Positions 72-45,687 of a stretch of 64,000 nt of DNA are shown one piece after another. The stretch lies in assembly GCA_030613245.1 (NCBI GenBank), contig JAUWMI010000008.1, positions 27,831 through 91,830 on the forward strand, in the 5' to 3' direction. The DNA comes from Candidatus Sumerlaeota bacterium (lineage in GTDB: Bacteria; Sumerlaeota; Sumerlaeia; MWCT01; JAUWMI01). The position numbers were made by a program, and so were the translations under genes. Numbering within the stretch: position 1 is the stretch's first letter; each line of letters begins with the position of its first letter. The notes beneath the pieces are model-generated. The model did not search any database and was not told the DNA's origin. It was given only the letters and a program-made list of their open reading frames with translations.

Positions 72-2156
72 TCAGTTCAGGTATCGCCAAAAGACTACCC
101 GTGTCGGCTGTTCATCCGTTGCCAGAATGGCCTTCAGCGCTATAGGATTGGCATTATCCGTAAGCAGACCCTTGGGAGGGGTACTTTTGGAGATGACTGA
201 ACATGATCGCGATTTCACTGTGATGAGTTTTGCCAGATTGATAAAGCTTGCAATTCGTTTGTTCTCGCCCTTGTCGGGCCAGAGGACGTTATTGTATAGC
301 AGGTCGCTGATGTTATTAAAGAAGCTTGGATGAGATGACGTTGATCGCTCAGCCTTAGCCGCTAATGTGCCCTCACGATAACGCATGATGCGTTCTGCGT
401 CTCGCTGGTCAATCCCGGGAAGCGCTTGAAGAACTTCCACTGGTGCGGTATTAATATTTACCTTGCCAAGTACTGGTGGCTTTTTCAGCCTCGGAGAAAT
501 GGACGAAACATTCCGTCTGTGTGTTTCATCGCGTTTTGCCTCAAGTGAGGGCGACTGGCCTGTAAAATTAATCAGAGTAAATAGGTCAATGATTCGGCAG
601 TCCAGCTCCGCATCTGTGCTATTTGAAATCATCGGATATACCCAGCACGTCCCTTGGTGTCCCCCTGCTGGTGCCCACCCGGAAGAGACATACATGACTT
701 CTGCAGGCGACGTGAACGCATGATCTTGCCATTCCTTGGCGAACCTTGTCTCATCCAGATTCTGCGGCGAATAATTTGCATTAAGTGCAAAAGGCATGCA
801 GGATAGTCTTTGCCAGAATCGAACGCGTGGATCATTGCGCTGCAAACTAATATTCGCTCCCCCAAAGACCCCTCCTAGATAATAGAAATAGTCAATTAAA
901 TCGCCTTGCGCATCGTGCAGATATATCGTGCCGCTGGCATTGGGAATGTTCAGTGCCGGCTGTTCAATGATACGTTTCGTTGTACCATTCGGCACTAAGC
1001 CAAAAATGTCGTAAAACGATCCATAGTTTACCATTTGGTCTTCCGGGGTTGGGTCATTCTCCTCATTATAATCATCCGTAACAATAACGAACCCTCTTGG
1101 TGCAATGTTCCCATTGAGATATGCAATAGATCCACCACAATTTAGCTGCCATCCCTCTATGCTGATGGGATGCGAGTACGGATTATACAGCTCAACGTAC
1201 TGCCCATCATCTCCGTCTTCCTCTAGCGTCGGCGAGTCTGGAAAAACCTCGTTGATAGAGGGAGTCTGCTCAATGCCGATTATAGGATGATTAGGATTGC
1301 TTCCTGGGTAGAGCGTAGGAACAGTATCGGGGTCTCGGAAGTCAACGATGTTTGCGGCAAATTGCTTGAGCAGGTCATCGTTTTTGCGTGGGAATCGAGC
1401 GCGAAGGGTAGAATAAATTTCCGATGGAATTGCATGGTTCATGCTACACTTACGCACAAGCTCGGAGCCGTTAAAGTAAGTCTCTTCCGATGCCGAGAAT
1501 ATGGTAAGGCACGGCTCCAGAGCAGCATAGATTTCCGGGGTGAAATTGGGCAGAAGCAGGAGCTCCTCCAAATTGTAAAATGGCTTGTCGTCTCCGTAAG
1601 GAGGGAGGCGCGGATCACCGACGTATTCATCCGGGATATCGGATTTCCCGGGCCTTCCGTCGGCCCCGAGGCGATGGCGAACAATTTCACGTGCCAGCGT
1701 TGAGGCAAGTCCCGAACGGAGGTCATTTTTGTGTAATAGTGATACAAACAGTGCTTCCAGTATCTGCTCATTTGCCGTATTTACGTTAATCTTTGCCGAT
1801 TCGTCAAAGATGTATATTTCTGATAGCGAGCTCTGAAATAGCTGCTTATGCTGCTCAGCAGGCCGAGCCAATTCGCCCGCCTGGGAGTACAAGAACCCGT
1901 TAGGGTGGGCCCATTCCTGTATCAGACTTGTATACTTGACCTCCTGGTTGAAGAGAGCTGCGGCGCGAGCGACACCGGTTGCCGCGCCCATGCGCGACTG
2001 AATGCCTTCAGAGAAATTGCTAGCCGCTATGATCTCCAGCCGTGAGGTGAACGACAGAGTGGTCGCAATGAGCACCAGAAGCGAGAGAATTGCAATCACG
2101 ATGATAAACGTTGACCCTCGATTTGGTCGTCCTCTATATAAGCAATGGTTCATCAT
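72..2156 (-). CDS. GspK/PilX-like minor pseudopilin carrying an inserted lamin-tail (LTD) domain
   Basis: 694-aa ORF. N-terminal NRG|STFIIVIAILSLLVLIATTL pilin-like hydrophobic segment without Glu5, as in GspK. Two helix-hairpin-helix-like motifs (INVNTANEQILEAL; VNINTAPVEVLQALPGIDQRDAERI) typical of GspK. Central DGDDGQYVELYNPYSHPISIEGWQL matches the LTD consensus. Last gene of an H-I-J-K series; ATGA 4-nt overlap with the upstream gene. Confidence 0.7.
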   Translation of the reverse strand: MMNHCLYRGRPNRGSTFIIVIAILSLLVLIATTLSFTSRLEIIAASNFSEGIQSRMGAATGVARAAALFNQEVKYTSLIQEWAHPNGFLYSQAGELARPAEQHKQLFQSSLSEIYIFDESAKINVNTANEQILEALFVSLLHKNDLRSGLASTLAREIVRHRLGADGRPGKSDIPDEYVGDPRLPPYGDDKPFYNLEELLLLPNFTPEIYAALEPCLTIFSASEETYFNGSELVRKCSMNHAIPSEIYSTLRARFPRKNDDLLKQFAANIVDFRDPDTVPTLYPGSNPNHPIIGIEQTPSINEVFPDSPTLEEDGDDGQYVELYNPYSHPISIEGWQLNCGGSIAYLNGNIAPRGFVIVTDDYNEENDPTPEDQMVNYGSFYDIFGLVPNGTTKRIIEQPALNIPNASGTIYLHDAQGDLIDYFYYLGGVFGGANISLQRNDPRVRFWQRLSCMPFALNANYSPQNLDETRFAKEWQDHAFTSPAEVMYVSSGWAPAGGHQGTCWVYPMISNSTDAELDCRIIDLFTLINFTGQSPSLEAKRDETHRRNVSSISPRLKKPPVLGKVNINTAPVEVLQALPGIDQRDAERIMRYREGTLAAKAERSTSSHPSFFNNISDLLYNNVLWPDKGENKRIASFINLAKLITVKSRSCSVISKSTPPKGLLTDNANPIALKAILATDEQPTRVVFWRYLN

Positions 2157-3085
2157 AGGTTCAACAAATGGGTCTGATAGCGCTGGTCTTTTAGCACCTG
2201 CTCAATGTTGACAACCGTCTGAAGCGTAATGGTCTGTACCGGATTGCCCGGTTTATACTGTTCGATCGGCTTCGGATCCGCATAAACCGACACTGCCAGA
2301 AAAACCGCAATAGGCAGCTCGATGCCAGGTTGCACGAAACGTGGCGCATCGAATGAGTTCCAGGTTGTGGTCCAATCTGGCGGAATGCGGTTCGGATCCC
2401 AATAGAGTAAATAGAGCGACATCACATTGAAGGCGAGGGGTGCTACCTCTACTGTCCTATTTGGGGATGATGGGTTGTGAACAATACGGCGTAAAAGGAC
2501 ATGCTGTTCGCCTTCAAATGTTCCGACCTCGAATGTAATCAGATCGTCACGCCTAAGGGGATTATTCGGATCAGGGAAAATCCGAAACGTCAGCCGATCA
2601 AGGTCGAATTTGCAGTCCTCGTCAACGTGACTATCTCCCAGGTCAGGAGTATTAACAAAGAATTGCCGCTCAAAGAGGCCGCCTACCACAGCATGGCGAT
2701 CATCACGTGTTGGATTCCAGTCTGGGCCAGTATAATCATCATCACGTCCGTTGAAGAGCTCTTCGTCAATCACTCCATCTCCGTCATCATCAAGCCCGTT
2801 GCCATAGGCCAAAATATAATCTTCACCCACGAAGTGCTGCAACGGCTGGCGTGGATCAATGCGGGCCGCCTTGATGTCAATAGCCATCATTTCCAGTGCC
2901 GCGCGGGCATTGTTGACAGCCTCCAATTTCGTCTCTGCAAGATTAGTAGCCCGCAAAATCTGAATAAACGCCGCTACCACGCCACCCATAAACGCCATCG
3001 CGACTGCCACAGCAACCAGGAGCTCCAGCAAGGTCATCCCTCTGGTTCTGGGATACTTTTGAGCCATGTGCACATTGCTTCTCAT
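2153..3085 (-). CDS. GspJ/PilW-like minor pseudopilin
   Basis: Class III prepilin signal KYPRTRG|MTLLELLVAVAVAMAF. The ORF track extends to 3232, but that would give a >50-aa leader. ATG at 3083-3085 (MRSNVHMAQ...) or 3065-3067 (MAQKYPRTRG) is more plausible. 4-nt overlap with the downstream gspK-like gene. Confidence 0.6.
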   Translation of the reverse strand: MRSNVHMAQKYPRTRGMTLLELLVAVAVAMAFMGGVVAAFIQILRATNLAETKLEAVNNARAALEMMAIDIKAARIDPRQPLQHFVGEDYILAYGNGLDDDGDGVIDEELFNGRDDDYTGPDWNPTRDDRHAVVGGLFERQFFVNTPDLGDSHVDEDCKFDLDRLTFRIFPDPNNPLRRDDLITFEVGTFEGEQHVLLRRIVHNPSSPNRTVEVAPLAFNVMSLYLLYWDPNRIPPDWTTTWNSFDAPRFVQPGIELPIAVFLAVSVYADPKPIEQYKPGNPVQTITLQTVVNIEQVLKDQRYQTHLLNL

Positions 3086-3231
3086 AGGCTGCAGGTTGTC
3101 TGTTTTTCGGGGCGTCGCCTTGCCCGTTAGATTATTTATGCCTAAAACATCAGGCCGAAAGCTACCATTGGATTTAAATTGCTGATTACTTTTACACAGT
3201 AACCGACAAACGGACAAATAGTAGTTCTGCA

Positions 3232-3687
3232 TTATTCATCAAAGCGCAGTTCATAAATGATATTCTGGCTGCTTTTAAAGCTTCTATGGTACCGAATGAT
3301 AATTCGTGCAACGCCGACGTCGTCCCGAGGGTCGCCAGGATCGTCCTCTGTATCAATCAACGACACGCCGCAGAATGAATAGGCCAGATGAGGGCTTTGT
3401 GGAAATTGAATGGGCTCGGTTGGTGTGCGTAGAATACGCAGCTGTTGAATGAAATTATGGCGTGGAGAATTATCACGCCGAATTTCCTCTGCTTTCTGGT
3501 GTGCTAACAGGGCAGCTTCCGACAATACCGCCGCATCATTATTGGCTTTCAGACTCAGAGGGAAGAAGTTGACGATGGCAATAATTCCCGCCAGCAGGAT
3601 AGCAAGGCTGACCAGCACTTCGAGGAGAGAGTATGCGCGCTGGATGGCCCGTCGGGGACTTCGACGCATTATCAAGCCCCCCTTCAT
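3232..3687 (-). CDS. GspI-like minor pseudopilin
   Basis: 151 aa. N-terminal RRAIQRA|YSLLEVLVSLAILLAGI prepilin-like motif with Glu5. Size and position (between H-like and J-like) fit GspI. Note Ala rather than Gly at position -1. Confidence 0.6.
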   Translation of the reverse strand: MKGGLIMRRSPRRAIQRAYSLLEVLVSLAILLAGIIAIVNFFPLSLKANNDAAVLSEAALLAHQKAEEIRRDNSPRHNFIQQLRILRTPTEPIQFPQSPHLAYSFCGVSLIDTEDDPGDPRDDVGVARIIIRYHRSFKSSQNIIYELRFDE

Positions 3688-4211
3688 CTACGGGCATCCG
3701 GATAGATACGAGATTTGGCTGTTGAGGAGTAGAGCCTTATGGTGTAGTAATTCTCCCCAACTGCAGTATCTTCGCTTTCGCGGATGAGATGCACTGTTGC
3801 GTAGTCCGAGGTTCCATTGGGACGAAACAGAATGTGCACAACCCCCGAAGTCTCGGTTTTTGAATTCACCGTGACATCGGTAATTCTGACAAAATCAGTT
3901 AACAGCTTAGGTGTGGTGATTTTTGGCTCGCTAATGTTAAAGAGGTAGTTAACCTTGTCAATCCAGATGCGTCGATTGGTGATATCAATTGTCGCCTGAA
4001 AGTAACCATTCTGCTCAATTGCCTTATTGCGAGCAGTAGAAAACAAAGTGTTTATCTCTCGTGCGGAGCTCTTCAGACGAAGGCTTTTGCGATAGGTACC
4101 GTATGACAGGATGGCAAGGGTGGAGAAGATGGAAAGAATAATAAGAACAACTAAAAGCTCAAGCAGGCTATACCCCTGCTGCTTTTTTGTAGGCAATCGT
4201 CGCACCCGCAC
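3684..4211 (-). CDS. GspH/FimU-like minor pseudopilin
   Basis: 175 aa. KKQQG|YSLLELLVVLIILSIF prepilin motif. 4-nt overlap with the downstream gspI-like gene. Confidence 0.65.
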   Translation of the reverse strand: MRVRRLPTKKQQGYSLLELLVVLIILSIFSTLAILSYGTYRKSLRLKSSAREINTLFSTARNKAIEQNGYFQATIDITNRRIWIDKVNYLFNISEPKITTPKLLTDFVRITDVTVNSKTETSGVVHILFRPNGTSDYATVHLIRESEDTAVGENYYTIRLYSSTAKSRIYPDARR

Positions 4212-37284: not shown

Positions 37285-37950
37285 CTAGAGTTGTTCCTTG
37301 CTCGATGGGAGAGCAAGAGATGTTGTAATTGTCACAGGTTCTACCCGGTCCGTAGCATCGCGAATAATGACCGTAATTTCGACCACTCGCGGAACTGCGC
37401 CCGGTTTGAGAGCAACGACCCATTGGGGATTCAGCATCTCAAAAGCGCTCGCGTATCGAAAGCGCACTTCGCTTTCTACGTCTCCCACGCCAAGACCAAG
37501 AACACCAAGAGCCTGCTGGCTAGTTTCGGTCTCTGGGGAGGGAGAAGCCACACTCTGCCCAAGTAGTGTGCTCTCCATCATCACACGGTTCAGTTGCGTC
37601 TTCGCATCCCGCCGGTTGGTAATCAGATACTGCAAGGGCTGGCTCTCCTTTGCCATATGCAGAGAACGAAATTGCATCTGGTTTTCAGCAAAGTGCGTAG
37701 CGCCAGTGGGCGCCGCTTGTGCCAGCTCACCACTAGGGAAAAACTGTTTAAGCGACTTCGCTATAGTGTTGGTGATGAGGCGTCCTTCTTGCCGCATGGT
37801 CGCTTTCAGAATGTTGGCATCAGTAGCGGCGGTGGTGCGTATCAATATTCCAAGGATCAGGCCAAAAATAATCAGCCCACCCGCAATTGCCACAATTAGC
37901 TCAATCAGCGTTATCCCGTTTTGTTGGCGTCTCGAGAGGTACTTGATCAT
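37285..37950 (-). CDS. PilW/GspJ-like minor pilin
   Basis: 221 aa. RRQQNG|ITLIELIVAIAGGLIIFGL canonical prepilin cleavage/methylation motif. Confidence 0.65.
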   Translation of the reverse strand: MIKYLSRRQQNGITLIELIVAIAGGLIIFGLILGILIRTTAATDANILKATMRQEGRLITNTIAKSLKQFFPSGELAQAAPTGATHFAENQMQFRSLHMAKESQPLQYLITNRRDAKTQLNRVMMESTLLGQSVASPSPETETSQQALGVLGLGVGDVESEVRFRYASAFEMLNPQWVVALKPGAVPRVVEITVIIRDATDRVEPVTITTSLALPSSKEQL

Positions 37951-37983
37951 CCGCTTGGTTCCGCTTGTAGCGCTCTCTATTTG

Positions 37984-38104
37984 TCTGGTAGCACAAGCAT
38001 CCTTTTATCTGGTAGCACAGGCATCCTTGCCTGTGCATAGCTGTAACAGGCTGGAAGCCTGTTCTACCATTAGCTGTAACAAGCAAGAAGCCTGTTCTAC
38101 CATT
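37984..38104. repeat. Intergenic tandem repeats (2 x 24 bp, 2 x 33 bp) with two perfect 8-bp-stem hairpins between pilV-like and pilW-like genes
   Basis: Seen directly. 37984-38007 and 38008-38031 (tctggtagcacaRgcatcctt..). 38039-38071 and 38072-38104 (agctgtaacaRgcWRgaagcctgttctaccatt). Hairpins CACAGGCA-tcct-TGCCTGTG (38016-38035) and AACAGGCT-gga-AGCCTGTT (38045-38063). The last repeat unit abuts the pilV-like stop codon. The motif CCAGATAA from the pilV 3' end recurs in the repeats. Confidence 0.85.
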
Positions 38105-38596
38105 TTATCTGGCCACGTTCTCAATCAGGACAATTTTATTCCCTATCGGCAACTCGCTAATGTGAGAATATTTATTCCGCCCGGTCGGAAGCCACCCGGC
38201 AGTCACTGTCATTTTGATTATGTTTTCATTTTGTGGATTCAGGGCAAGGTCCGCCTGCCACACTATTCGTGAGAAGAGACGCGTTGAGGGGTAAATATCA
38301 GGCAGGTATTGTGTGACGAAAGCAATGCTCTCAGGGTAGGAAACTGACTGGTCGGTCCTCTGCATCTGACGCAAGCGAATGTAGGAGGCCAGGTTTTCGT
38401 ACCCCGCGGCTTTTAACTCCTCGAGCTTCCCTTTGGCCACGTACATGGCAAGGGACTTGTAATCATTGCGTTCAGACTGTTTTTGTGCGTTGAGATAGAG
38501 GTCCAGAACCCCATAGATTCCAAACACCAGGACAACGAGGGCAATCATGACTTCAACTAGAGTAAAACCACGGGTACCGGAAAGTCGCAGATTCAT
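38105..38596 (-). CDS. PilV/GspI-like minor pilin
   Basis: 163 aa. SGTRG|FTLVEVMIALVVLVFGI canonical prepilin motif. Confidence 0.65.
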   Translation of the reverse strand: MNLRLSGTRGFTLVEVMIALVVLVFGIYGVLDLYLNAQKQSERNDYKSLAMYVAKGKLEELKAAGYENLASYIRLRQMQRTDQSVSYPESIAFVTQYLPDIYPSTRLFSRIVWQADLALNPQNENIIKMTVTAGWLPTGRNKYSHISELPIGNKIVLIENVAR

Positions 38597-38797
38597 CAGG
38601 ATTCCAGGAGGTATTTAGATTATGAGTAGAAATACATTGGCTCGATCAGCCGTGTCAATACTTTATTTTTTCAATTTCCCGCTGAATTTACTCTGGATCG
38701 ATAGGGATGATCAGTGAAGTACAAAGTGGCACGGGCATCTTGCCCGTGAGAAATCGGAAAAGAACCACCTGGCCTGCATGTTGGCAGACAGGCCAGT

Positions 38798-39817: not shown

Positions 39818-40006
39818 GGTAAACCATTACCTCCCTGAAAAGTTCTAATTGCCCTCTTTGTCGCGCAAAAATTTAGTGGGGAATTCTGCTGTGTCTTTAT
39901 CAATATTGCAAGGATTTTTTAGTGTTTTGTCATCTTGCTCGACAGAGGCGACCGTGATGCTTCTCGAGATGGATCTTTATAGGTAGGAACAGATTACAAT
40001 CTGTCC

Positions 40007-42907
40007 CTACTCCAGGCCCTTTTCCTTCCGGGCTTTCTTCCGTGCCTTAAGCAGGCGATCCGTGTACGACTGTTCCCTCGCCTTCTCCTCCCGTTTGTCT
40101 TCAGGCTTCGGAGCCGATGGCTCCCTGGCCTGGAAAGCGGGCTCAGCAAATGGCGTCACTTCTCCAGGCGGTGTTTCGGACTTGCGTTTTGCTTCAGCCT
40201 GCGCCCTTAGCGCATCGAGGTCAATGGTCAGACCCTTTGGCTCATGCGAAATACGCTGCTTGCGCTCCTTGAGCGTTCCCACAACCGTATCTGCGGGCAC
40301 AGGTTGTTTTTTGGGGATCGGAAGCGTTACTACCCGTGCTAAAGCCTGAAGAGCTGTCTCGATCTGGTGCCGATCAAAAACCACACGTCGAAACGCAATA
40401 TCAAGCGGCAAGAGCAGCAACGCTACGAGCAAAAGCTCATGCCAGAGAGGTCGTGGCTTTCGCACCGTTGTGCCGAGGTGTGCAAACATTTCTTCCGGGC
40501 GAGGATTGAGCCGGCCGTGTGAGACCGAGGCAATCTGGTTCAAGAGAAAGTAATTTGGCGTAAATGTGTTGAATTCGGGCGGATATGATATAACGTGCCC
40601 GGTTGTTGCCGTTTCCAACTCTTCTCCCCATGTGCTGACCAGATATGGCCCAATTTCAATTGCCGTAAATTCGCCCTGATACCTGCCTGGAGCTACCTGT
40701 TTCATGCCGAGCGAAAATGCGTTCTTCTCCGGTGTCACGATCCGTGCTTCCAGCGCAAGGAAATTGATAAATTTGCCTGCTTCGTCAATAGCGTCAACTG
40801 TAAGTGTGCCTTTGCCCTGCTCGATCTTCAAATGCGGATGCAGCGCGCCCTCTTTCTGCTGGCGCACAACCCAGCGCACGAGCTGTTGCCAGAATTTCCC
40901 AAATCCCTGCCACTCCAGCCACTCTCCAGCCCACCGATTCTTTGCATCCGACGTGAATGCCACGGATTTGCCCAAGCCATACCGCCATACTGCCAGCAAA
41001 GGGTCGTCTTTATGTGTGCTCAGGAGAACCTCCGCCCGCTCTTTAGGCTGCGTTGCAACATAGCCATGCAGCTGCGGGATGCCCATATCTGTCAGGCCCT
41101 GAAGAATTTCATGGCTCTGCACTATTGCCGGAACAAAAGGTTCCTCGATTACGTACGAGCGCTGAACCAGCTGGGTTTCTTTCGTGAAGATGCGCGGAAT
41201 GCTATACGGGTCGTCTGTAAAGTAATAACGCCCCTGCGCCATTTCTGCCAGATATCCCATCAGTTCCTGATCCGCATCTGAGCCGATGGCAACGGTGGAC
41301 AAAGTTATTTTCTCGTCCGCAATATTTTCCACCAGCGTGTCAAAGTTTGCCGGTTGTGTCCGTCCATCAGAAAGGAGGATGATATGCTTCACCTGGACGT
41401 CTGCCTCCTGCAGGGCGCTGAAGGCGTTTTTTAGGGCCGGATAAATATCTGTTCCACCGCCAGATCGGATCGAACGGATGGTGTCAATAATGAGGTATTT
41501 TTCCGTGGCTGGAGTCAGCTGCTGAACCCACTGGGCCGCTGAGTCGAACGCAATAACGCCCACCTGATCGCGCGGCGTGAGAATCTCTACTGCTGCAACT
41601 GCCGCTTCATTGGCGAGCTCCATTTTCGTGGCACCATGCATTTCGCCCGACATGCTCCCCGACTTGTCAATAACCATGATCAGGGCCAGACTCGGGAAAC
41701 GTTTCTTATCCCTCAATTCCATGTAAACTGGCAGCGCCTCTTCCACCGGCGTGTTGTGATAACCGCCCACCCCAAATGAATCTTCACCGCCAATCATGGT
41801 CAGTCCGCCACCGAGGTCGTGCACATAGGTCTTGACCAGCTTGAGTTGATCTTTCGAAAATGTTTCCGCTGAGACGTTAGCCAGAAAAAGGGCGTCATAG
41901 CTTTGCATCTCTGCAGGGCTCGTGGGCATGTGCAGGGTCTGATCGCTCAGAATCTCTTCTTGCTCCAGAACTTCCCGGACAAATTGGACGTTTTTCTCTG
42001 TCCCAACCAGGAGCACCTTAGGTTCACCATATACCATGGTGAATGCAGACGCGGTATTATTATCCGGTATCGTATCACGCAGCGATTCGGCGACAACACG
42101 GTAGGTATGAAAACCCGGGTCAGCTTCTGCCTGCGGAAGCAGAAAGACGTTCTTGCCAGCAGTCAGCTGAATAGACTGCGCGCCAATGAAGTTTGTGTCT
42201 TTAAAGAGCTGCACCATGGCAACCGTATCAACATTGGCCTCAATGATGATCTTCACATCAAAGGGCTTTCCCCGATCTACCTGTTCAGGCACAATGAGTT
42301 TGCTGACCAGTACCTCTTCGGGGATAGCAGGCTGTAGCGCAACAATATCAATCGGCACGTCGTTTGCCGCAGCCACCATGGCCTCAGAAAGCGCATTGCC
42401 AAGATTCTCGTTTCCGTCAGTAAAGAGAATCAGGCGCTTTTGCTTATCCTCGGGAAAGAGACCCAGTGTCAGACGAAGTGCCTTCGCAATATTCGTGTGA
42501 TAGGGCGAGGGAGCAGACTCGATCTTAGCGAAGTCAGGCGCACGCGCAGGAGCCGAGTCAACCGAGACGTCTTCTCCAAACACTACAAGGCCGGCAACAT
42601 CATCAGGGCTCATCGCGGCGACGGCCTCACGGATTGTCTCCAGGGCGCGCTCCGATTCAGTCGCGGGAATACTCAGTGACCTGTCAAGTGCGAACAGCAC
42701 ACAGAGCTGGTCAGTGGCGCTGAAAAACGTCATCCCTGACAGAGCGAAAATGAGCAGCAAGATAATGACTAACCGCATTACCAGGGCTGTGCGTTTTCGC
42801 CATAGCGGCAAGGCCACCAGTGTTTTTCGCTCAATCAGAAATAGCACAGGCACCGCAAGCAGCAGCACGAGAAAAAATGGTTTGGAAAAGCCCACAGGCC
42901 ACAGCAT
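40007..42907 (-). CDS. Membrane-anchored von Willebrand factor A domain protein (BatA/BatB-like, double vWA)
   Basis: 966 aa. N-terminal double TM. Two vWA MIDAS-type blocks (VLFALDRSLSI; LIMVIDKSGSMSG). Basic/acidic C-terminal tail. Resembles the N-terminal double-TM plus vWA architecture of aerotolerance BatA-type proteins. Confidence 0.65.
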   Translation of the reverse strand: MLWPVGFSKPFFLVLLLAVPVLFLIERKTLVALPLWRKRTALVMRLVIILLLIFALSGMTFFSATDQLCVLFALDRSLSIPATESERALETIREAVAAMSPDDVAGLVVFGEDVSVDSAPARAPDFAKIESAPSPYHTNIAKALRLTLGLFPEDKQKRLILFTDGNENLGNALSEAMVAAANDVPIDIVALQPAIPEEVLVSKLIVPEQVDRGKPFDVKIIIEANVDTVAMVQLFKDTNFIGAQSIQLTAGKNVFLLPQAEADPGFHTYRVVAESLRDTIPDNNTASAFTMVYGEPKVLLVGTEKNVQFVREVLEQEEILSDQTLHMPTSPAEMQSYDALFLANVSAETFSKDQLKLVKTYVHDLGGGLTMIGGEDSFGVGGYHNTPVEEALPVYMELRDKKRFPSLALIMVIDKSGSMSGEMHGATKMELANEAAVAAVEILTPRDQVGVIAFDSAAQWVQQLTPATEKYLIIDTIRSIRSGGGTDIYPALKNAFSALQEADVQVKHIILLSDGRTQPANFDTLVENIADEKITLSTVAIGSDADQELMGYLAEMAQGRYYFTDDPYSIPRIFTKETQLVQRSYVIEEPFVPAIVQSHEILQGLTDMGIPQLHGYVATQPKERAEVLLSTHKDDPLLAVWRYGLGKSVAFTSDAKNRWAGEWLEWQGFGKFWQQLVRWVVRQQKEGALHPHLKIEQGKGTLTVDAIDEAGKFINFLALEARIVTPEKNAFSLGMKQVAPGRYQGEFTAIEIGPYLVSTWGEELETATTGHVISYPPEFNTFTPNYFLLNQIASVSHGRLNPRPEEMFAHLGTTVRKPRPLWHELLLVALLLLPLDIAFRRVVFDRHQIETALQALARVVTLPIPKKQPVPADTVVGTLKERKQRISHEPKGLTIDLDALRAQAEAKRKSETPPGEVTPFAEPAFQAREPSAPKPEDKREEKAREQSYTDRLLKARKKARKEKGLE

Positions 42908-45621: not shown

Positions 45622-45649
45622 CGCTCACTGCCTAGCAGAGTGATTCTGA

Positions 45650-45687
45650 GGGGTAAATAAGGTAACCTTATTTACCCCTTTTTTTTT
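45650..45687 (+). terminator. Rho-independent terminator (13-bp perfect stem, 3-nt loop, T9)
   Basis: GGGGTAAATAAGG-taa-CCTTATTTACCCC followed by TTTTTTTTT, 29 nt after the LTD gene stop. Confidence 0.8.

Follow-up and report, generated by a model that had tools for sequence, protein, structure and literature searches.

Why is the short space between two prepilin-type genes filled with tandem repeats and hairpins, and do these repeats belong to the pilin genes at all? The question is raised by a 64,000-nucleotide stretch of contig JAUWMI010000008.1 (assembly GCA_030613245.1, positions 27,831 to 91,830) of a Candidatus Sumerlaeota bacterium, which was analysed as a whole and which we call the window. 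On its minus strand, a gap of 154 nt (37951-38104) separates a 163-aa prepilin-type gene with a PilV/GspI-like N-terminus (38105-38596, stop codon TAA at 38105-38107) from a 221-aa prepilin-type gene (37285-37950) that lies immediately 3' of the repeats, both genes being taken from the list of open reading frames (ORFs). The original prediction saw in this gap an element amplified on the spot out of 3'-terminal sequence of the first, pilV-like gene. We arrive at a different answer, to which we assign a probability of roughly 0.7: the gap holds a small cluster of GTAG-type repetitive extragenic palindromes (REPs) resembling a bacterial interspersed mosaic element (BIME), the cluster would have originated as a repeat mobilised by a REP-associated tyrosine transposase (RAYT), and it would act within the mRNA on expression of the operon. 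A REP is a short palindrome (about 20-50 nt) that can fold into a stem-loop and has a tetranucleotide tag, usually GTAG, directly on its 5' side, and a BIME joins a REP, an inverted REP and a linker, often in consecutive tandem copies (PMC8266576).

The structure of the gap is as it had been described. Tandem Repeats Finder and a repeat finder both recover the predicted pairs of direct repeats, one with a period of 24 nt at 37980-38027 (2.0 copies, 92% match) and one with a period of 33 nt at 38038-38104 (2.0 copies, 91% match). Both expected perfect hairpins are present as well, GCACAGGCA-TCCT-TGCCTGTGC at 38015-38036 with 9-nt arms and a 4-nt loop, and AACAGGCT-GGA-AGCCTGTT at 38045-38063 with 8-nt arms and a 3-nt loop. 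The motif CCAGATAA at the 3' end of the 163-aa gene does recur on the coding strand after the element, inside the repeats, and the last repeat unit does end at the stop of this gene, the outer 33-nt copy (38071-38103) finishing at 38103/38104 and abutting the stop codon at 38105-38107. Zero matches to either the 24-nt or the 33-nt unit are expected in shuffled sequences, and the 12-mer GGTAGNACAGGC occurs four times in the window, always within the same 115 nt, against an expectation of 0.72. Folded as RNA, the gap reaches -59.1 kcal/mol (z = -3.1), and its central pair of hairpins alone reaches -33.6 kcal/mol (z = -5.6). Because the repeat units are unexpected in shuffles, the 12-mer is in excess and the folding z-scores are low, the repeats of the gap are not a product of chance.

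The tandem repeats are made of a smaller palindromic unit, (G)GTAG directly 5' of [A/C]ACAGGC-loop-GCCTGT[T/G], with an 8-bp stem and a loop of 2-4 nt. We scored such units with R1, a covariance model trained on units of other genomes only. Unit B (GGTAG-AACAGGCT-TCC-AGCCTGTT, 38042-38069, minus strand) scores 41.8 bits (E 5e-11) and contains a perfect 8-bp hairpin; unit C (GGTAG-CACAGGCA-TCCT-TGCCTGTG, 38010-38038, plus strand) scores 40.8 bits (E 1e-10) and contains a perfect 9-bp hairpin. These hairpins fold at -10.8 and -16.6 kcal/mol, respectively. C is inverted with respect to B, and together B(-) and C(+) make a head-to-head heterodimer, the GTAG tags facing outwards and a 9-nt linker lying between the halves. 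We regard B as the canonical left half and C as the right half of an ancestral inverted pair: both have orthologous copies, those of B in the orthologous loci L120, L124, L131 and L133 also scoring 41.8 bits.

The local amplification that had been suspected is real and consists of partial tandem reiterations, that of the B side giving the 33-nt repeat and that of the C side the 24-nt repeat. Unit A (GGTAG-AACAGGC-TTCTT-GCTTGTT, 38075-38102, minus strand; R1 23.9 bits, E 3e-5, -8.3 kcal/mol) sits in the extra, stop-proximal 33-nt copy and has one sense-strand G.U pair in its stem and an altered loop. The extra 24-nt copy (TTTGTC-TGGTAG-CACAAGC-ATCCT, 37980-38003, plus strand) contains unit D at about 37986-38003, which is truncated to tag, 5' arm and loop and lacks the 3' arm; it matches the 12-mer with one mismatch, and none of the orthologous loci has it, not even L131 with its 98% identity. 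All four units, A to D, begin with GGTAG. The degenerate 12-mer GGTAG[A/C]ACAGGC occurs four times, two per strand, and nowhere else in the window.

Two nucleotides separate the start of the cluster from the stop codon, and all units of the window are confined to two intergenic spaces. The second of these, between asd and the 163-aa gene, holds the solitary unit E (GTGG-CACGGGCA-TCT-TGCCCGTG, 38724-38751, plus strand; R1 31.4 bits, E 1e-7), which has the known GTGG variant of the tag and a stem, CACGGGC/GCCCGTG, with compensatory changes relative to units B and C. L120 and L124 have a degraded or rearranged version of unit E, and L126 and L130 have none. Run over the entire 64-kb window with filters off, R1 gave nothing significant beyond units A, B, C and E, and a search of the window for further copies by exact and mismatch patterns, a hairpin scan and the covariance model added only 38724-38751. 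With unit E at this position, the 163-aa gene is bracketed by REP units whose tags face the gene from both sides.

The same unit is found far beyond this operon. We scanned one genome per species, 596 Gb in all, with the pattern TGGTAGMACAGGCWTC, which fixed the left arm and is biased to the point that copy numbers per genome are not derivable from it, and obtained at least 119 loci. In 596 Gb, chance would account for most matches to a 16-mer, yet among the matches listed 77 of 125 continue into the full hairpin ACAGGC-loop-GCCTGT. Several 8-kb loci hold three to seven units; units beyond those caught by the search pattern include seven in one such locus, L005, and others on several contigs of one metagenome-assembled genome (MAG) labelled Schekmanbacteria. 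MAGs carrying the family are labelled Acidobacteriota, Cyanobacteriota, Verrucomicrobiota, Planctomycetota, Desulfobacterota-type 'Deltaproteobacteria', Lentisphaeria and Sumerlaeota, among others. Stem variants are compensatory, with CACAGGC, AACAGGC, GACAGGC, CACGGGC, CGCAGGC and CGCCGGC each accompanied by the matching 3' arm, and the family has a polar tag-to-loop orientation, with the loop TTCA seen 52 times and its complement TGAA not once. Across 42 aligned units, covariation is seen at the loop-closing pair (U-A 22, A-U 17, G-C 1), a pair that the selection of units did not impose.

The B-C pair as such also recurs in unrelated contexts (L027, L134 and L135). In a Sumerlaeota-labelled MAG (L027, 6539-7105, the same as L136, 708-1176), a pair 92% identical to that of the window is present three times at distances of ~195-310 nt, and flanking sequence is repeated along with the pair, giving a larger tandem array. 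A tblastx comparison of the window with the Sumerlaeota-labelled contigs that have this pair found no genes in common. A crude survey of ORF contexts at the other loci counted 45 unidirectional, 10 convergent and 12 divergent arrangements; 12 of 55 family units lie no more than 15 nt from a gene 3' end, a figure to be read qualitatively given the rough gene calling. An Rfam scan of 37700-38400 with E up to 10 found no known RNA family, returning only a chance match to ssnA at 13 bits, and a full-text literature search for the hairpin sequences gave no relevant match. Since the stem ACAGGC/GCCTGT was not found in the text or the available supplements of Di Nocera et al. 2013 (PMC3733652), this is possibly a new, undescribed REP sequence family.

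The family also travels with the expected kind of enzyme. An E. coli RayT probe gave a lead to an ORF in L037, and this match was then confirmed with Pfam and NCBIfam: the ORF scores 80.5 bits (cutoff 80) with the NCBIfam model NF047646, REP-associated tyrosine transposase (REP_Tyr_transpos), and 24.6 bits (cutoff 23) with Pfam Y1_Tnp (PF01797), and it has hundreds of homologues, several of them named RayT or REP-associated tyrosine transposase at their source. It sits between two inverted R1 units. RAYT genes in three further independent loci (L137, L138 and L140) are likewise bracketed by inverted R1 units, which score 19-44 bits. A RAYT gene between inverted units is the REPtron arrangement. 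In L138 (3045-3072) and L137 (3030-3057) the RAYT gene as annotated has an R1 unit inside its 5' end, so the true start codons are probably further downstream.

Because the same unit is dispersed and inverted units flank RAYT genes, we classify the cluster as REP/BIME-like, and because the family brackets RAYT genes in other genomes, the origin of the cluster would be a RAYT-mobilised repeat and not the pilin gene. The idea that the repeats were built from the duplicated 3' end of pilV has accordingly to be given up: the core is two GTAG REP stem-loops whose family is dispersed in unrelated genomes. A special tie of the repeat to pilin genes falls with it, the repeat being, at the level of the family, a common dispersed one. 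Since this REP type is found almost unchanged in MAGs labelled as more than ten phyla, there is a possibility that it marks a horizontally spreading RAYT/REP system.

The orthologous loci show how the cluster was assembled. The 221-aa protein has only eight homologues in a database of 5.8 billion proteins, with 65-98% identity, and the loci recovered for them are all syntenic. One B-C pair is present in L120-L123 (221-aa protein 86% identical to that of the window, gap 99 nt), in L124 and L125 (87%, 95 nt), in L133 (71%, about 84 nt) and, with two substitutions, in L130 (65%, 88 nt), and in L126-L129 (68%, 60 nt) there is one tag-less hairpin, AGCAGGC-GTCCG-GCCTGCT, with a compensatory stem change. 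L131 (98%, 130 nt) has two 33-nt copies and one 24-nt copy, and the window, with its gap of 154 nt, has two of each. Copy number thus varies between related lineages as had been anticipated, with 1+1, 2+1 and 2+2 units. The single inverted pair of the syntenic relatives begins 0-2 nt past the stop codon, and every ortholog has a stable stem-loop that starts no further than about 10 nt from the stop codon. As a single pair occupies the same position in syntenic relatives, the pair is ancestral and orthologous, and as only L131 and the window exceed a single pair, the tandem repeats are lineage-specific partial reiterations, of a sort typical of BIMEs. By this distribution, the 33-nt reiteration appears to go back to an ancestor shared by the window and L131, and the 24-nt reiteration to have arisen in the line leading to the window alone.

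Two observations on the close relatives belong here. The extra 33-nt copies of the window (38071-38103) and of L131 (35-67) differ at 6 of 33 positions although the 221-aa gene is ~98% identical. Compared with the canonical copy at its own locus, each carries three changes that the other lacks, which would mean either unusually fast decay of the extra copy or independent origins of the reiterations in the window and L131. The short metagenome contigs L131 and L132 begin in or beside the REP cluster, as is typical of assembly breaks at repeats.

What might the cluster do where it stands? In all recovered loci the gene order is VWA protein, asd, 163-aa gene, gap, 221-aa gene, 171-aa gene, GspE/PilB-type ATPase and GspF/PilC-type platform protein. 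A block containing TTGACA upstream of the 163-aa gene is kept in all orthologous loci and a promoter scan found no promoter-like site on the coding strand of the gap, from which we infer transcription across the gap, with the 163-aa gene as first cistron. A block of ~60 nt, AAATTGAAAAAATAAAGTATTGACACGGCTGATCGAGCCAATGTATTTCT, at 38610-38680 on the minus strand, 5' of the 163-aa gene, is kept in all orthologs while the surrounding intergenic DNA diverges; it is probably the operon promoter or a regulatory region, and a simple sigma-70 scan made no call there.

The cluster would thus be transcribed as part of the operon mRNA and fold there into stable stem-loops immediately past the stop of the 163-aa gene, and the expression of this gene would shift relative to that of the downstream pseudopilin, GspE and GspF genes. 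The shift could take either direction. The stem-loops may, in the way described for REPs of E. coli, shield the upstream segment from 3'-to-5' decay or processing, which would raise the first gene relative to those downstream, or REPs so close to the stop codon may reduce translation, which would lower it. The REPs between malE and malF reportedly stabilise the upstream segment of their mRNA and skew the protein ratios. Roles of REPs in mRNA turnover have been cited elsewhere as well (PMC3733652; PMC12306157), and translation can be lowered by REPs that lie closer than 16 nt to a stop codon (PMC12306157, citing Liang et al. 2015). An effect of mRNA stem-loops on how stable or how well translated the first gene is, compared with the genes downstream, is in our analysis the most likely role. 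Both stem substitutions, in unit A of the window and unit C of L130, are sense-strand C-to-T changes that leave a G.U pair in the mRNA and an A.C mismatch on the antisense strand, and this is a weak hint of constraint at the RNA level.

A bolder version of this role would make the pair an old REP heterodimer domesticated as a fixed cis-regulatory RNA module of the pseudopilin operon, with the reiterations (1+1, 2+1, 2+2) tuning the ratio of the first pseudopilin to the assembly genes. The pair has been kept directly after the stop codon across nearly saturated synonymous divergence, and the family is otherwise almost absent from the window, both of which would suit such a module; we nonetheless consider domestication rather doubtful.

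Several observations weigh against a RAYT-mobilised cluster with a role in the mRNA. By tblastn, a RAYT gene is absent from the 64-kb window and from the orthologous loci. The four to five family units of the window all lie within 750 nt, in just two spaces flanking one gene, so a high copy number in the source genome would be a presumption. The phylum labels are the titles of MAG records, in which misbinned contigs are possible. At the RNA level, the outer GTAG/CTAC pairing in L124 has a sense-strand A.C mismatch, which fits poorly with constraint on the RNA only, and the stems of the orthologous pairs are almost invariant, so covariation cannot separate selection on the RNA from transposase recognition, gene conversion or slow decay. 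Nor does such covariation distinguish a pair of local hairpins from a single long one.

A serious rival therefore keeps the REP assignment and drops the function: the cluster would be a selfish or neutral relic, maintained by long-lived vertical inheritance or gene conversion, with no part in the operon. This is possible but less probable. REP/REPIN systems are reported as very long-lived and mostly vertically inherited (10.1101/2022.05.22.493013), and REPs generally lie near the 3' ends of upstream ORFs (PMC3733652), in which case the position here is not special. The extra and divergent copies are also decaying, with R1 scores of 23.9 bits for unit A, 9.9 bits for the extra copy of L131 and 21 and 18.7 bits for the units of L130, and the neighbouring unit E is lost or degraded in relatives. 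The hairpins behave otherwise. The window and L130 share 37 of 39 hairpin bases against 55-67% of 4-fold sites, and by our own arithmetic a binomial model with p = 0.67 gives this a probability of about 3e-5. In L126, the most distant of the orthologs, a stem-loop whose stem has changed in a compensatory way still follows the stop directly, and the absence of the family from the rest of the 64 kb argues against frequent re-seeding from other copies. Stable, GC-containing hairpins directly after the first gene of an operon could also serve as an intra-operon attenuator or terminator that stops a fraction of RNA polymerases there, and in E. coli a link between BIMEs and attenuation of transcription has been reported (Espeli et al. 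2001). We find this unlikely, as no sense-strand U-tract follows either hairpin (the sequences are ACAGCUA and CUACCAGAUAAAAGG), a terminator scan finds no site in the gap, and the same genome uses a canonical terminator elsewhere. The latter, at 45649-45686 (plus strand), is a textbook intrinsic terminator 3' of a 739-aa gene, with a 14-bp stem, a 3-nt loop and TTTTTTT. The genes downstream of the gap, moreover, have no evident promoter and therefore need substantial read-through.

The four GGTAG[A/C]ACAGGC 12-mers could instead act at the DNA level, as an array of operators or nucleoid-protein sites for a regulator, gyrase or an IHF-like protein. Their near-identity and symmetric 2 + 2 inverted layout within 115 nt would suit this, and REPs and BIMEs have been reported as binding sites for several proteins (PMC2817692; PMC8266576). 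The motif is, however, present in unrelated gene contexts in many genomes and therefore is not a pilin-specific operator, and the site lies 3' of the first gene of the operon, not at its promoter, which makes an operator array improbable. Still harder to credit is the reading closest to the original prediction, a repeat born locally from the pilV-like 3' end that works as a slipped-strand, phase-variable switch. In its favour, CCAGATAA(A) at the gene end recurs after the element and copy number varies among close relatives. A 10-nt direct repeat, TTTTATCTGG (38003-38012 and 38103-38112), brackets units C, B and A; its second copy overlaps the last codons and the stop codon of the 163-aa gene, and a copy with one mismatch lies in the other 24-nt unit. 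This bracketing repeat of 9-10 nt is real, but a one-mismatch version (CCAGATAAA / CCAGACAAA) is already present in the single-pair relative L120, so the flanking CCAGA(T/C)AAA repeat is older than the tandem copies. A model trained on unrelated genomes recovers the units with E of about 1e-10, and relatives have the un-duplicated pair. A copy-number switch is further made unlikely by the repeats themselves, which are two imperfect copies each of long 24- and 33-nt units with 91-92% identity, lie in non-coding DNA between genes and downstream of the operon promoter region, and are thus unlike contingency loci, where a short unit recurs in many identical copies whose number alters the reading frame or the promoter spacing. 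By these comparisons the local, phase-variable origin appears largely refuted, and we return to a REP cluster of RAYT-mobilised origin with a probable role in the operon mRNA.

The rest of the gap and its surroundings can be described more briefly. The part of the gap without repeats (37951-37979, minus strand), at its 3' side, is the leader of the 221-aa gene, GAGAGCGCTACAAGCGGAACCAAGCGG-ATG, and is kept among close orthologs. We also considered and rejected the gap as coding sequence. It is in frame with the 221-aa gene in L120 and L133, and P0005, a database protein of 249 aa, extends across it. The gap lengths of the window (154 nt), L124 (95 nt) and L130 (88 nt) put it out of frame, there is an in-frame stop in L126, and a prepilin leader must be short, and for these reasons the gap is not coding. 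P0005, from L133, is an over-extended gene call through the REP pair that starts from the ATG of ATGGTAG. As for the flanking genes, the names pilV and pilW given to them hold as far as the prepilin-type N-termini go, with an N-terminal methylation motif in both the 163-aa and the 221-aa protein (Pfam N_methyl at 26.2 bits for the former), and are otherwise only loosely supported, the best NCBIfam matches of the 163-aa protein being PilV and GspI, both below cutoff and limited to the N-terminus.

Elsewhere in the window, no REP units lie near a second set of prepilin-type genes at 2153-4211 (minus strand), which have the motifs RGMTLLELLVAV and QGYSLLELLVVL at their N-termini. A different palindrome bounded by GTAG...CTAC, GGTAGGAACAGATT-ACA-ATCTGTCCCTAC, lies at 39981-40012, right after the stop codon of the 966-aa VWA gene; it is kept in L120, is replaced by unrelated hairpins in L126 and L130, and gives no match to model R1.

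The chief value of these results is a correction, in that an apparently pilin-specific, local repeat turns out to be a copy of a widespread family of mobile palindromes, and the proper annotation of the gap is REP/BIME, not a novel regulatory element. The stop-proximal position of the pair after the first gene of the operon is unchanged in all relatives found, and the orthologs offer, in an uncultured lineage, a natural series at a fixed position (one hairpin, 1+1, 2+1 and 2+2) in which the setting of expression ratios by REPs can be tested outside the Proteobacteria. The occurrence of this REP type with RAYT genes in many uncultured lineages also extends the known range of REP-RAYT systems.

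Among known systems, the cluster resembles the Correia elements of Neisseria and other miniature inverted-repeat transposable elements (MITEs) in being a small, transcribed palindromic repeat beside genes of a kind able to alter mRNA stability or processing (PMC3733652). The element has MITE-like marks, with inverted ends TGGTAG / CTACCA and a direct repeat of 9-10 nt that flanks it here and in L120. Other copies of the pair lack such a flanking duplication and the Y1 enzyme family makes none; MITEs are about 100-400 bp long, have terminal inverted repeats and owe their target-site duplications to DDE transposases, whereas the enzyme here is a Y1 HUH transposase. The REPINs of Pseudomonas fluorescens SBW25 are also inverted REPs that can fold into one long hairpin and are served by a single-copy, REP-flanked RAYT gene, and they share long persistence and vertical inheritance. 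Many REPINs have longer spacers than the 9-nt linker found here, where the two halves form a heterodimer with different loops.

The BIMEs of E. coli, with their alternating y and z REPs, share with the cluster two inverse subtypes, a short linker, variable tandem reiteration and a place between operon genes (PMC8266576; PMC12306157). E. coli REPs are longer (29-37 nt) and imperfect, have a conserved bulge and are unrelated in sequence except for GTAG, and their effect on expression has been shown by experiment, whereas an effect of the cluster described here would be a prediction. GTAG REPs, as described by Di Nocera et al. 2013 (PMC3733652), occur in several phyla and have stems of 6-9 bp and very short loops of the TY type. 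From these the present units differ in their ACAGGC/GCCTGT stem, as far as the text and available supplements of that paper show, and in being represented by one cluster and one solitary unit in 64 kb. The likeness is otherwise extensive. REPSm/SMAG of Stenotrophomonas maltophilia is a perfect 16-nt palindrome with a 3-nt loop and GTAG directly 5', and here, as in SMAG and the families of Di Nocera et al., GTAG precedes a perfect 8-bp stem with a pyrimidine-rich loop (TC, TCC, TCT or TCCT). GTAG REPs form head-to-head dimers, heterodimers with different loops and tandem reiterations that include flanking DNA, tolerate G-T pairs in their stems and are placed within about 20 bp of the 3' end of the upstream ORF (PMC3733652). 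The window and its relatives have counterparts to these features, in heterodimers, tandem reiteration with flanking DNA, G-T stem pairs, proximity to a stop codon and, at other loci of the family, a RAYT gene between the units (PMC3733652; PMC8266576).

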